This document shows positions 6,562 to 10,096 of a stretch of 64,000 nucleotides of DNA, in pieces (within the stretch, counting starts at the first letter, position 1; every line of letters starts with the position of its first letter). The DNA comes from Escherichia phage vB_EcoS_AKFV33. The position numbers and the translations under genes are program-made. The notes below the pieces were generated by a model. That model was not told the DNA's origin and ran no database searches. It worked only from the letters and a program-made list of their open reading frames with translations. The stretch lies in the sequence record NC_017969.1; one strand, given 5' to 3'.

Positions 6562-6996
6562 TTAGAAAAATTCGCTAGCAATCAAAGCAGTTGTTTTACC
6601 TTCATAACGCCCTGGAAACTCTGCCTTAATGGTTTTCATTAAGAGAGCTTTGGTAATGCCGGGGTTTAGCTTAACCAGTTCTGCAAAGTATTTACGAATT
6701 TCAGTTTCAGTCAGTTGACTTGGCTGATACTCTTGCAGCATGGAATAAAGCAGTTGCTCATAGTCTACATCAGTAGGAACTTTCGTACCAACTTTAATAG
6801 CGCGCTGCTTTGCATTTTCTAGAGCCTTAATCTGAGCTTTCAGATAGGCTACGAACTCGGTTCGAGTAACAATATCTTTATCAATACGTTGCAGGTCGCC
6901 AATCATGGTCTGAAGATTAAGCGCCCGCTCTTTATCACCGTGAGTACGTGCTAGACTAAGCAGTCCACGAAGGGTCATTAGGATATTTTCACCCAT
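6562..6996 (-). CDS. GatB/YqeY-like domain protein
   Basis: C-terminal pattern EYQPSQLTETEI...KALLMKTIKAEFPGRYEGKTTALIASE resembles YqeY family. Confidence 0.5.
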   Translation of the reverse strand: MGENILMTLRGLLSLARTHGDKERALNLQTMIGDLQRIDKDIVTRTEFVAYLKAQIKALENAKQRAIKVGTKVPTDVDYEQLLYSMLQEYQPSQLTETEIRKYFAELVKLNPGITKALLMKTIKAEFPGRYEGKTTALIASEFF

Positions 6997-7166
6997 TATT
7001 TCATCCCCAGTGCTTGGTTAAAAGATTGCTCTGTCATAACTGCTGAGACTTTGGCGAAATCAAACTTTTTAGGGTTCGTAGTGATTTCAGCAACGTTAGA
7101 AGTTTTAACAGTTTTCGTAGTACGAATACCGCGAGTGTTAACACCAATAATTACAACTGATTTCAT
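6996..7166 (-). CDS. small hypothetical protein (~56 aa)
   Basis: manual translation MKSVVIIGVNTRGIRTTKTV...; stop overlaps ATG of downstream ORF (TAATG). Confidence 0.3.
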   Translation of the reverse strand: MKSVVIIGVNTRGIRTTKTVKTSNVAEITTNPKKFDFAKVSAVMTEQSFNQALGMK

Positions 7167-7197
7167 ATTTCGCTTCCTCTCATTAATTTATGAAAGT

Positions 7198-7226
7198 ATT
7201 ATACAGAAATTTAAGTAGTTAAGCAA
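7198..7226 (-). promoter_or_regulatory. early promoter (TTGCTT-17-TATAAT)
   Basis: motif plus downstream TTTCATAAATT box. Confidence 0.5.
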
Positions 7227-7234
7227 GTAACTTT

Positions 7235-7702
7235 TTAAGTTTTAGTGACAACAGGTTTATAGAATGTATGTCCCTTAATCTTAGTTGTTTTCTTAAATTT
7301 CTTTGTCCAGTAAGGTTTATCTTTACCACTATGGAAGTATAGTGCTCCATGTGTAGGATCTTGTGGTAAATCAACGTAGTATATCACTCTAGCTAAATTC
7401 TTAGCGGTTTGCCAAGCCTCATCAGTTTTATCAACTTTTGGTCTCTTAGATACCCAAGAGAACTGGTTAGACTGATATACTACTTTACAGTAGGAATCTG
7501 GGAATTTACCGGAGTTTACACGGTTTTTAGTAACATGTGCAATTGCCGTCATTCCCTTTATGCCCTCACCACGACTCTCGAAATAGATATTTTTAGCAAT
7601 GCAATCTATTTCTTTTGCATCGTGCGATGCCTGACTACTAAAGCTGAAGGTAAGGGCAGCTACTAAAAGCAAAGCTGCCTTCATTCTTTTTACTCCTGCC
7701 AA
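7235..7702 (-). CDS. secreted cell-wall hydrolase, SleB-like
   Basis: signal peptide MKAALLLVAALTFSFSSQA; IAKNIYFESRGEG...AIAHVTKNRV...YCKVVYQSNQFSW motifs. Confidence 0.6.
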   Translation of the reverse strand: MAGVKRMKAALLLVAALTFSFSSQASHDAKEIDCIAKNIYFESRGEGIKGMTAIAHVTKNRVNSGKFPDSYCKVVYQSNQFSWVSKRPKVDKTDEAWQTAKNLARVIYYVDLPQDPTHGALYFHSGKDKPYWTKKFKKTTKIKGHTFYKPVVTKT

Positions 7703-8007
7703 TCATATTCAACACGATTGGGATTTTCTTTATACCCTAAGTCAAGCAAATCATTACGCATATTTTGCTTAGCTACTGGGTTCGAGGTTACTAGTACCAC
7801 TTTCTTTGGTCTCTGCCCAAATTCTAAGAGTAAACGAAGAATTTGATAACCTTCCATACCATCTACAGCCAAGTCATTATCCATATAAACGAAATGGCCG
7901 GTGGTATCAGTTTTATTCAGAAACTCTACAGCGGCTTCTGGGGTTCGAATGATAATGTCCATTCCGTGAAGATTACGCACATCATCAATCAAAATATGAA
8001 AAGTCAT
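7690..8007 (-). CDS. stand-alone receiver-domain-like protein (CheY-like fold?)
   Basis: ILIDDV (acidic pair), YMDNDL, VVLVTSNP, AKQ in REC-like order. Confidence 0.4.
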   Translation of the reverse strand: MTFHILIDDVRNLHGMDIIIRTPEAAVEFLNKTDTTGHFVYMDNDLAVDGMEGYQILRLLLEFGQRPKKVVLVTSNPVAKQNMRNDLLDLGYKENPNRVEYDWQE

Positions 8008-8037
8008 AATAGCCTCGTTTCATCAATTTAAAAATAT

Positions 8038-8066
8038 ATTATACATATAATTTAGTAGATTAGCAA
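8038..8066 (-). promoter_or_regulatory. early promoter (TTGCTA-17-TATAAT)
   Basis: motif read on minus strand. Confidence 0.5.
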
Positions 8067-8449
8067 ATACATTTTTAAATTGTGAAACTAGTAAACCGAT
8101 AAACAGCCTAGAGGCGCCACAGGCCATATCTTATGAGCCATGTACCTTTGATCTAGGGTTTGAATCATCAACGAATACTTTGCATCTTTTAGCTTTAGAA
8201 GTTTAGAAGTTTGAGTTCTTTAAACTTTTCAGCTTTCATACTTAAATGTTGATCTTTGAAGTTGTGTCGGTAATATCAACGACGCTTTGTTCTTACGTGT
8301 CAGCTTAAAAGGCTGGTGTAATAAACATAATCTCCAATAGATTATACTTTATAGTATGGTCAGCGGTCTTATTTAACCTCGTATTTCAACCGCTGCTGCG
8401 AGGTAAGATGCTTGGGCTTTCGTCTACCGATTTACTAGCTTTTAAATTA

Positions 8450-9088
8450 TTACTCTACTTCAATGAAGGTAGAAGCGTTAGACTCGGACAGAACAAAGTC
8501 AACATTTGTTGCAAAGTCCTGATATTCCTCGTCATGCTGCTTAATCAGCTTTTCCAGTTCCAGCGGATCAATCAAGAATGGAGTATTCTTGAGTTCCAGC
8601 AGGTTGAGCTGCATTTTAACTTCATCTTCGGAAGTTTTCTTATCGCGGGTAGCCATGCTATCCTGCAAACGCTCATATTTAGCATCAAACTGTGCTTTCT
8701 GCGTATTAAACTTAACCGTAGCGGCATGGAACTGCTTACGCATGTTAGCCAGTAGTTGGGCTTTAAGTTCCATAGAACGCTTAGCTTCAATTGCTTCCGC
8801 AACAGTCATCTTACGAGAGCCAATCTCAACGATTGTTTCCGCATTGCTTTTAATCAGAGCAGCTTTGATACGATCACGCTGGGACATCATATCCAGCAGA
8901 GACTGGAAATCAGTCTTAATACGAGTAGACAGATCAGCTACTTCGATTGCAGCGCCAACTACAACTTGGTTTTTATCCTTACCTTCACCAACAGCGATCA
9001 GAAGCTGCTGTTCAGTAGCTTTACGGATTTTAGCTTCCAGAGATTTGATAGTTGCCAGAGCGCGAGTTTTAGAAATACGAGTAGTCAT
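8450..9088 (-). CDS. hypothetical protein (212 aa), coiled-coil rich
   Basis: ORF track. Confidence 0.5.
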   Translation of the reverse strand: MTTRISKTRALATIKSLEAKIRKATEQQLLIAVGEGKDKNQVVVGAAIEVADLSTRIKTDFQSLLDMMSQRDRIKAALIKSNAETIVEIGSRKMTVAEAIEAKRSMELKAQLLANMRKQFHAATVKFNTQKAQFDAKYERLQDSMATRDKKTSEDEVKMQLNLLELKNTPFLIDPLELEKLIKQHDEEYQDFATNVDFVLSESNASTFIEVE

Positions 9089-9141
9089 TATTTGCTTCCT
9101 TATATGAAGTTTGAGATTTGAATTTGTTTAAAGTTGGTCTA

Positions 9142-9324
9142 TTACAGACCAATTGCCAGCAGAGTGCGTAGAACAGTATCATTACTGTTATCAATTTTAG
9201 GATTAGCACGATTTAGCAGATCAAAGATTTTCTGGATACCTGATTGACGTTCAGCCATACGACGGATACCCAGATTACGAGTAGCTTTCTTACCATTTTT
9301 ACGAACATTTTTAGATACTGGCAT
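9142..9324 (-). CDS. hypothetical basic protein (60 aa)
   Basis: ORF track. Confidence 0.4.
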   Translation of the reverse strand: MPVSKNVRKNGKKATRNLGIRRMAERQSGIQKIFDLLNRANPKIDNSNDTVLRTLLAIGL

Positions 9325-9364
9325 ATATGTTTTCCTTTTATTGTTTTCTCAAATTTATGAATAT

Positions 9365-9393
9365 ATTATACAGAATTTTGGGGCCGGAAGCAA
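9365..9393 (-). promoter_or_regulatory. early promoter (TTGCTT-17-TATAAT)
   Basis: motif plus ATTCATAAATT box. Confidence 0.5.
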
Positions 9394-9394
9394 A

Positions 9395-10096
9395 TCAAAT
9401 TTTCATTTTTTCGATCATAGCTGCAACACAATAGCTTTCAACTAAGGCATCAAATGCAGGATCATGCTTAACCGGATAGATCCCATAACGAATAGTGTCC
9501 ATCTTCTCCATTTTAGCTATTGCCCAGCTAATACCTTCGGTCTCTAGAGCCTTATAACTGTATCCAGCTTGCATCCAGAGATTACGAAGAGATCGAACAT
9601 TGCCCAAATTCCAGAATTTCCACGGAACTACCTCTTCATTGGTTCCAGCATGGAACGTGTTTGCAGAGTAGATAGTCATATCAAACTCTGGGCCATTGCC
9701 ATAATACAAAGCATTTTCACCTAGAGCCAACTCCATAATATTTTGAGCCATAGAGAAGGCAGCATAGTTTGAGCCTAATTTATTAGTGCAATGATGTTTA
9801 CCATTTTGGAAGGCAATCAGTTTTGGATTACGTTCCTTCATGGCTTCCATAATGTGGATAGCAGACGGGCTATTTTTAGCTTGATCCATCCAGAATGCTA
9901 GAGTAGATGCTGTAACTTTGGCACCAGAATTAAGCTGATCCTGCACATCCAAAGTAGCAAATACTAAGTCAGGGTCTTTATCAATCCCATGCATAGCCAC
10001 AAAAGCGAAAGAAGGCATTGCGATATGAGTAGTACCACAATCTCCTGGAGTTCCTAGAGATTCAATATCTAGCATACCAAATGGTTTTACTTTCAT
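9395..10096 (-). CDS. DEDD-family 3'-5' exonuclease
   Basis: Exo I motif MLDIESLG near N-terminus, Exo III-like HDPAFDA near C-terminus. Confidence 0.6.
   Translation of the reverse strand: MKVKPFGMLDIESLGTPGDCGTTHIAMPSFAFVAMHGIDKDPDLVFATLDVQDQLNSGAKVTASTLAFWMDQAKNSPSAIHIMEAMKERNPKLIAFQNGKHHCTNKLGSNYAAFSMAQNIMELALGENALYYGNGPEFDMTIYSANTFHAGTNEEVVPWKFWNLGNVRSLRNLWMQAGYSYKALETEGISWAIAKMEKMDTIRYGIYPVKHDPAFDALVESYCVAAMIEKMKI

Follow-up and report, generated by a model that had tools for sequence, protein, structure and literature searches.

Two neighbouring genes of a T5-like phage raise the question of whether an exported cell-wall hydrolase and a small receiver-like protein, read from one transcript, belong to a single working system or simply lie side by side, and what each of them might do. 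The genes are found in a stretch of 64,000 nucleotides from Escherichia phage vB_EcoS_AKFV33 (sequence record NC_017969.1), here called the window. An initial annotation, made from the letters of the window, had described the open reading frames (ORFs) at 7235-7702 and 7690-8007 as an early-region pair, in which a secreted SleB-like enzyme is expressed together with a stand-alone protein that could accept a phosphoryl group. Both ORFs are real and are where they were claimed to be, on the minus strand, with the receiver-like ORF upstream in the same unit. They are orthologues of T5.084 and T5.083 of phage T5, and on balance it is probable that they are independent accessory genes which happen to be read from a single short sigma-70 transcript of the early block. 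The assignment of both proteins to their folds and families is firm and close to certain; the activity proposed for each of them is put forward more tentatively, with slightly more doubt than belief in either case.

Gene organisation and relation to phage T5

The window phage is a T5-like siphovirus (Tequintavirus). Over bases 6500-9200 its closest relative is Salmonella phage vB_SalS_SA001, also a Tequintavirus, with 99.4% DNA identity, and 445 phage records matched this region. Eleven tRNA genes are present in the window between positions 666 and 5873, and beyond them, in the leftward direction, are genes for thymidylate synthase, DHFR and ribonucleotide reductase according to the SA001 annotation.

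The receiver-like protein, a member of the cREC family described below, and the hydrolase are 96% and 97% identical to T5.084 and T5.083, respectively (NC_005859, 42745-43062 and 42290-42739). Gene order, strand, spacing and flanking promoters are all alike in T5 and the window, and there is no substantial difference between the two loci. In T5 one promoter is annotated upstream of T5.084 and another, P-D/E 33, directly downstream of T5.083, and the gene products are annotated as a 'hypothetical protein, similar to KVP40.0304' of 105 aa and an 'endolysin' of 149 aa. Both genes are already known, being annotated in T5 and hundreds of its relatives, and both domain families are represented in Pfam. 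The SleB-like gene of AKFV33 has previously been remarked upon as a second endolysin distant from the holin (PMC3326045), as it has in Salmonella T5-like phages, where the question of which enzyme is mainly used was left for future study (PMC11180984). A search of the literature found nothing on T5.083 as a phage gene, the sole text match to T5.084 was an unrelated neuroscience preprint, and no experimental paper on the cREC family was found.

Table 1. Features of the two-gene locus, in window coordinates
Feature	Position	Strand	Description and basis
sigma-70-type promoter of the two-gene unit	8038..8066	-	TTGCTA-17 nt-TATAAT; 10/12 matches in a consensus scan; T5 equivalent annotated upstream of T5.084
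cREC gene (T5.084 orthologue)	7690..8007	-	105 aa, predicted cytoplasmic, minimal receiver fold; PF20274
Shine-Dalgarno AGGAG of the hydrolase gene	7693..7697	-	within the last cREC codons; direct sequence reading
SleB/CwlJ-type single-domain cell-wall hydrolase gene (T5.083 orthologue)	7235..7684	-	149-aa precursor; PF07486, phrog_938, PDB 4f55/4fet
predicted signal peptide, residues 1-19 MKAALLLVAALTFSFSSQA	7628..7684	-	hydropathy and -3/-1 rule; predicted signal peptidase I cut after SQA
next promoter	7198..7226	-	TTGCTT-17 nt-TATAAT; read from sequence, below scan threshold; T5 'promoter P-D/E 33'

The two genes are co-transcribed as a unit between two sigma-70-type promoters (Table 1). 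Only 5 nt separate the cREC stop codon (7690-7692) from the ATG of the hydrolase gene, and the second promoter is situated 9 nt past the hydrolase stop codon (7237-7235), where it opens the next unit (ORFs 6996-7166 and 6562-6996) and delimits the pair downstream. The SleB-type ORF of the initial annotation is real but its start has to be moved. ORF 7235-7702 is a mechanical ORF opened by TTG at 7702, and the true start is the ATG at 7684, giving 149 aa; this is almost certain because of the spacing to the Shine-Dalgarno sequence, the MK start found in all homologues and the 450-nt length of the GenBank gene.

Pairwise Nei-Gojobori comparison of alleles from T5-like phages gave dN/dS values of 0.09 for cREC and 0.12 for the hydrolase, with values of 0.05-0.14 for neighbouring genes. 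Such purifying selection indicates that both genes are real and constrained, well beyond chance. An Rfam scan of positions 5700-9400 returned tRNA and tRNA-like matches alone, all of them outside both genes, and no hidden RNA element. PADLOC gave no match for either protein, and a role for either as a defence-system component was rejected on this result.

Fold, export signal and relationships of the hydrolase

A signal peptide and SleB-type motifs had been read in the downstream protein, and both readings hold. The protein matches the whole of the Hydrolase_2 profile (PF07486; E 2.2e-25, 89.7 bits against a cut-off of 27, profile positions 1-100 of 100) and also PHROG 938 (phrog_938, 'endolysin'; E 5.5e-30). 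With phmmer its residues 22-141 were aligned to the SleB catalytic-domain structures 4f55 and 4fet (E 2.6e-8), YFESRGE being matched to YGESRGE. When an AF2 model built from 60 homologues (pLDDT 91.6) was compared with the PDB by Foldseek, SleB chains alone were returned at E<=0.001, with a probability of 1.00 and target-normalised TM of 0.71-0.79 for 4f55 and 4fet. The catalytic Glu36 of YFESRGE, whose counterpart in the 4f55 alignment is the Glu of YGESRGE, is present in all 60 homologues, as are Y34, G44, R55, C66 and Q74, and C28 is nearly so. [quoted passage not shown]

The N-terminus of the hydrolase (MKAALLLVAALTFSFSSQA, followed by SHD) has one Lys in the n-region, a hydrophobic core of 13 residues and S-Q-A at positions -3 to -1, and an equivalent hydrophobic segment is found in 57 of the 60 homologues. 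The predicted mature protein has 130 aa, a mass of 15 kDa and a pI of 9.7, and the conservation of Cys28 and Cys66 in an exported enzyme suggests that a disulfide may form in the periplasm. An alternative use of this N-terminus is that of a signal-anchor-release (SAR) endolysin, in which the hydrolase would be anchored to the inner membrane in an inactive state and set free only when the holin dissipates the membrane potential. SAR endolysins keep a weakly hydrophobic transmembrane segment of about 20 residues uncleaved at the N-terminus, and P1 Lyz offers a precedent for disulfide caging. The hydrophobic segment of the phage hydrolase is rich in Ala, Ser and Thr, the protein has conserved cysteines, and tethering would account for tolerated early synthesis. 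However, a hydrophobic core of about 13 residues is short for such a segment, and the good S-Q-A motif that comes next points to cleavage of the signal; both conserved cysteines are in the mature domain with none in the N-terminal segment. A SAR endolysin is for these reasons considered improbable, and a cleaved export signal is the preferred reading.

The hydrolase is not a SleB orthologue, since it falls below the cut-off of the SleB equivalog TIGR02869 (50.3 bits against 236.5, covering profile positions 79-201 only) and has no N-terminal peptidoglycan-binding domain. SleB proper requires muramic-delta-lactam, which E. coli peptidoglycan does not contain, and therefore activity of the phage enzyme on the host wall is an assumption. 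T6EC3, a T6SS effector with the SleB fold, rounds and bursts E. coli when expressed, and its toxicity depends on the equivalent Glu (PMC11148199). This toxicity in E. coli implies that a SleB-type domain is able to attack E. coli peptidoglycan in spite of the missing muramic lactam.

The receiver-like protein and its family

The upstream gene encodes a protein of 12 kDa with a pI of 4.9 and no hydrophobic N-terminus. As it is acidic and has no signal peptide it is predicted to be cytoplasmic, while the hydrolase is predicted to be exported. It matches cREC_REC (PF20274) with an E of 3.8e-15 and 56.8 bits against a cut-off of 27, over profile positions 2-86 of 88. This family, the 'cyclic-phosphate processing Receiver', was defined by Iyer, Anantharaman, Krishnan, Burroughs and Aravind (Viruses 2021, 13:63, PMC7824862). 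An exhaustive HMMER search of 1.84 billion representative proteins returned 232 cREC relatives (E <= 0.001), and among the best 150 of the 232 nearly all are stand-alone proteins of about 100 aa. The earlier view of a stand-alone receiver fold with no output domain is borne out by the PF20274 match. Both the receiver fold and the Hydrolase_2/SleB profile match, whose absence had been named as counting against the initial annotation, were found.

The conserved residues of cREC are D8, D9, R11, R21, D43, D45, G53, P67, T74, N76, P77 and Y92. In family alignments of 143 and 128 diverse sequences the two adjoining aspartates D8 and D9, together with G53, are invariant and position 74 holds either T or S throughout, and conservation exceeds 90% at R11, R21, D43, D45, L46, G47, P67, N76, L87 and Y92. 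An hhalign comparison with CheY, which is weak alone (probability 30%) and consistent with the structure, paired D43 with D57, G53 with G65, T74 with T87, Y92 with Y106 and N95 with K109; D8 and D9 are found at CheY D12 and D13. The receiver fold and the conserved aspartates of the catalytic pocket are present, and the protein keeps the Mg/phosphoryl pocket (D8, D9, D43, T74 and Y92). The Asp, Thr and Lys residues had been read as following the order of a CheY-like domain, and this is correct for D8/D9, D43 and T74 but not for the Lys, which is absent; N95 is at the place of K109, in a column that is not conserved in the family.

The structure of the protein also departs from that of classical receivers. 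DSSP assigned strands to residues 4-7, 18-20, 39-42, 69-72, 93-94 and 100-102 of the cREC model and helices only to 23-32, 53-62 and 77-89, so that compared with CheY the model is without alpha1 and alpha5. In CheY these two helices pack over one side of the sheet, with alpha1 as the principal site at which histidine kinases dock. The score against the classical Response_reg profile (PF00072) was below threshold, with 12.5 bits against a cut-off of 30.2, and a classical two-component receiver was rejected on this score together with the absent helices and the absent Lys. It is also reported that the cREC family has never been linked to histidine kinases (PMC7824862). Given this, and the absence of alpha1, alpha5 and the Lys109 equivalent, a role as a signalling phospho-acceptor is unlikely, and this part of the initial annotation is not sustained.

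A different role that would make use of a receiver pocket is that of a phosphate sink or decoy for host two-component kinases or acetyl phosphate, by which the host stress response would be shut down. Single-domain receivers that serve as phosphate sinks are an established class, and the equivalents of CheY D12/D13, D57, T87 and Y106 are conserved in cREC. Such a role is nevertheless very unlikely, as the kinase-docking helix alpha1 and the Lys109 equivalent are absent and members of the family, according to PMC7824862, are never accompanied by histidine kinases. In our own Pfam survey of 148 neighbour proteins from 21 non-T5 cREC loci no family was present in more than three loci, and no histidine-kinase family was among the best 25 of the 88 Pfam families listed, which also speaks against a phosphate sink.

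What cREC has in addition to the pocket is an invariant Asp two residues past the pocket Asp, forming a D-x-D motif, and two invariant Arg. The D-x-D at the end of beta3 may, as we infer by analogy, copy the nucleophile and general acid/base of the HAD phosphatases, and the motif together with the two Arg would seem to fit an enzyme or a binder of phosphate ligands better than a signalling switch. From gene neighbourhoods, cREC proteins have been predicted to process cADPR or 2',3'-cyclic phosphates (PMC7824862). Among the loci surveyed here, a Paenibacillus cREC gene has a Macro-domain gene directly upstream, in an operon that also encodes two polymerases, one of the Y family and one of DnaE type, and on one viral contig a P-loop (AAA_33) kinase gene is directly downstream of cREC; the viral contigs were scanned for cREC with a 21-sequence subset of the alignment. 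In targeted scans each of these partners was seen once, which is two of about 20 cREC loci, and they agree, if thinly, with the published ADP-ribose/RNA-end theme. The T5-type cREC gene has no apparent adjoining RNA ligase, Macro or NAD-processing partner. Genes for cREC are found in or beside tRNA clusters in T5-like phages, KVP40-like phages and three further sets of loci (the L033 group, L044 and L049). An argument for RNA repair from this proximity was rejected, since tRNA genes are also close to the unrelated SleB-like loci; such a position therefore probably marks a common region for accessory genes.

Adjacency of the two genes

The cREC and SleB-like genes are adjacent in most Markadamsvirinae loci, and this adjacency is confined to the Demerecviridae. 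It could be taken to reflect a functional pair, in which a phosphoryl signal sensed or passed on by the receiver-like protein would govern the exported hydrolase, with periplasmic remodelling or superinfection control as the outcome. Co-transcription, the short distance between the genes and their adjacency in most T5-like genomes speak for this. Against it, the products are predicted to be in different compartments, and cREC is under the Response_reg cut-off and lacks alpha1, alpha5 and the Lys109 equivalent. Within the Demerecviridae the genes are also separable. A homing endonuclease gene has come between them in phage Ace and in the NR01-type locus L029, an 85-aa ORF in KKP_3711, and in Pectobacterium phage My1 the two are five genes and 2.8 kb apart in a different order. 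Alleles of the two genes, as judged from identities, recombine independently: in L046/L047 cREC has 51% identity and the hydrolase 97%, whereas in L029 cREC has 95% and the hydrolase 68%, with an identical C-terminal third.

Altogether 65 fetched loci were compared with profile HMMs built from our own alignments. No SleB-type ORF was detected in the fetched flanks of any of 28 cREC loci outside the Demerecviridae, a set that included viral contigs, KVP40-like Vibrio phages, CPR and Betaproteobacteria MAGs, Paenibacillus and Clostridium, and no cREC gene was detected at five SleB-like loci of other large phages. A functional module was rejected on this comparison and on the insertions and rearrangements between the genes inside the Demerecviridae. 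The working pair of the initial annotation is thus given up, and a signal passing from cREC to the hydrolase is regarded as highly improbable. The adjacency is instead inherited synteny in a plastic region rich in homing endonucleases, although a shared role remains conceivable in view of the 5-nt spacing and of the co-transcription that most Markadamsvirinae loci have conserved.

Position of the hydrolase gene relative to the lysis genes

The hydrolase gene was also said to lie in the early region and not with the lysis genes, and this is correct in so far as it is about 22 kb from the T5 holin/endolysin cassette, yet the cassette is in the same leftward block. In T5 the lys and holin genes, which adjoin one another, are at 19.9-21.0 kb, the spanins at 22.5-23.2 kb and T5.083 at 42.3 kb, and no holin-like gene was seen among the neighbours of the hydrolase gene in the window. 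As the lysis cassette shares the leftward gene block with T5.083, and has similar annotated promoters, map position alone does not mark T5.083 as unusually early. In other large phages the SleB-like homologues are found among genes for Thy1, Metallophos, dGTP_diPhyd_N (dGTP diphosphohydrolase), RNase H and ribonucleotide reductase. Large virulent phages thus repeatedly place an exported SleB-type enzyme in an early or metabolic module, independently of cREC.

These observations bear on the possibility that the hydrolase serves early remodelling of the peptidoglycan and not lysis, whether for superinfection exclusion, for cell shape or division, or for an envelope-spanning structure. The early-type promoter, the distance from the lysis cassette, the association of homologues with nucleotide metabolism instead of lysis and the predicted signal peptide, which would make export independent of the holin, are all consistent with such a function. 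The function of superinfection exclusion in T5 is, however, attributed already to another product, the Llp lipoprotein, neither a partner nor an immunity gene was seen, and the presence of the bona fide T5 holin and endolysin genes in the same leftward block means that map position says little. Early remodelling is on this evidence unlikely, and assistance to lysis is preferred.

Proposed roles of the two proteins

If the hydrolase is an accessory muralytic enzyme, it would be exported to the periplasm without the help of the holin and be stabilised there by its disulfide. As a putative lytic transglycosylase it would cleave the glycan strands of the host peptidoglycan, so that the sacculus would be weakened and lysis assisted alongside the holin-dependent T5 endolysin. 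An exported muralytic enzyme that is active early would be harmful before progeny are ready, and therefore some unseen control must exist.

The cREC protein would not be a two-component phospho-acceptor but a small phosphoesterase with an Asp nucleophile, or a binder of a phosphate-bearing ligand of the nucleotide type. Candidate ligands, following the proposal made for the family, are 2',3'-cyclic RNA ends or cyclic phosphates derived from ADP-ribose, and the protein might serve in RNA-end repair or counter-defence. A more specific and more doubtful suggestion is that the T5-type cREC is the smallest known catalytic receiver domain, in which D43 would act as the nucleophile and D45 as the general acid/base, and that it opens cyclic phosphates either of the 2',3'-cyclic tRNA ends left by host anticodon nucleases or of NAD-derived immune signals. 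If this were true cREC would be a widespread and unrecognised phage enzyme of counter-defence or RNA repair, and its position at tRNA clusters would then be meaningful.

Conservation of the cREC domain extends from T5 to the jumbo phages of Vibrio and to some bacteria, and its function is a question that can be put in a classic model phage. The hydrolase presents a puzzle of its own, as to why large virulent phages of Gram-negative hosts export an enzyme of the SleB/CwlJ type independently of the holin. The genetics of T5 make the roles of both genes easy to test.

Comparison with known systems

The window protein resembles the cREC family (PF20274) in its stand-alone form of about 100 aa and in the signature DD...DxD...T/S-x-NP, and the family occurs in phages that include the KVP40-like Vibrio jumbo phages. 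It differs in that T5-like cREC genes are not beside the RNA ligase, Macro, NADAR and WYL genes that form the contexts behind the predicted function of the family, and in that the T5 clade is without the C-terminal R/K which most family members have. Compared with CheY and Spo0F (PF00072), the window cREC has neither alpha1 and alpha5 nor a Lys109 equivalent, with no kinase partner seen, whereas it adds the invariant Asp at D+2 and the two invariant Arg.

The hydrolase and Bacillus SleB (4f55, 4fet) have the catalytic-domain fold in common, with 28-31% identity, and share the catalytic Glu of YxE(S/A)RGE. SleB has an N-terminal peptidoglycan-binding domain that the phage hydrolase does not, and in its single-domain build the latter resembles CwlJ. 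Conversely the Cys28/Cys66 pair is found in the phage hydrolase and not in SleB (4f55/4fet alignment). The setting also differs, the phage enzyme being made in a Gram-negative host without muramic-delta-lactam.

Muralytic enzymes that reach the wall without a holin pore are exemplified by Lys44 of the Oenococcus phage fOg44, which is exported by Sec, and by the SAR endolysin Lyz of P1. These are the main endolysins of their phages and are encoded in the lysis cassette, whereas in T5 the main endolysin, lys, is a separate gene 22 kb from T5.083. T6EC3 is comparable in having a SleB-like catalytic domain that acts from the E. coli periplasm with Glu-dependent toxicity. Unlike the phage hydrolase, it is delivered by a T6SS, was found by structure rather than sequence, and is partnered by an immunity protein, which is predicted to be periplasmic (PMC11148199). 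The phage hydrolase, with no immunity gene seen nearby, would instead take the Sec route predicted from its N-terminus.

Homing endonucleases around cREC

In two of the comparison loci (L029 and L005), genes for homing endonucleases have been inserted exactly at the junction between the gene for the minimal receiver-fold protein, cREC, and that for the exported SleB-like hydrolase. The hydrolase of L029 is 68% identical overall, with a divergent allele in the N-terminal two-thirds and an identical C-terminal third, and this allele replacement resembles a co-conversion tract. Certain T5-like phages carry a divergent cREC allele joined in frame to an HNH homing endonuclease; the two make up a single ORF of 273 aa, and the cREC part lacks a separate start codon. 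The fused cREC is only 51% identical to that of the window, against 97-99% for the flanking genes.

Features of the window and of the comparison loci
Feature	Sequence	Position	Strand	Remark
SPFH/Band 7 (stomatin/prohibitin-like) membrane protein, 315 aa	window	4817-5764	-	
ORF-poor stretch	window	5874-6560		
Rfam tRNA model match	window	6376-6447	-	35.5 bits (gathering score 29)
ORF-poor stretch	window	8008-8449		about 440 bp
212-aa protein	window	8450-9088	-	no Pfam match
233-aa protein	window	9395-10096	-	matches Rv2179c-like 3'-5' exoribonuclease family
Homing endonuclease insertion, divergent hydrolase allele	L029	5312-5776; 5777-6217		cREC/SleB-like junction
Homing endonuclease insertion	L005	4323-4847		cREC/SleB-like junction
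HNH-cREC fusion ORF	L046	4482-5303		protein P0033; also L047
cREC in or beside tRNA cluster	L033	3394-7334		
cREC in or beside tRNA cluster	L044	4882-5372		
cREC in or beside tRNA cluster	L002	517-6351		
Paenibacillus cREC operon	L056	2872-9337		also L057

Neighbouring genes and non-coding stretches

The 212-aa protein is called a 'tail fiber protein' in many records despite its early-region position, and this label is probably a propagated misannotation. The 233-aa protein appears, depending on the record, as 'metallopeptidase', 'exonuclease' or 'recombination-related exonuclease'. The SPFH/Band 7 gene, flanked by tRNA genes, corresponds to T5.080, annotated 'lipoprotein'.

The stretch separating the 212-aa gene from cREC has no ORF of at least 40 aa on the coding strand and gave no match in an Rfam scan; the cREC promoter is confined to its last ~60 bp, and a promoter is the sole annotation of its T5 counterpart. 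The Rfam tRNA match, at which ARAGORN made no call, sits in the other ORF-poor stretch, the counterpart of the T5 'RNAX, stable RNA with unknown functions'.

Genomic context in other phages and in Paenibacillus

As in T5, the tRNA gene cluster contains or directly adjoins cREC in several unrelated large phages, and tRNAs are also found near the SleB-like genes of other phages (L063-L065). In Paenibacillus chromosomes cREC lies within a conserved operon, in which a Y-family polymerase (IMS), a 110-aa ORF, a Macro-domain protein and cREC are followed, ~0.9 kb beyond cREC, by a DnaE-type polymerase. This mutagenesis-type cassette links cREC to an ADP-ribose-processing domain (Macro).
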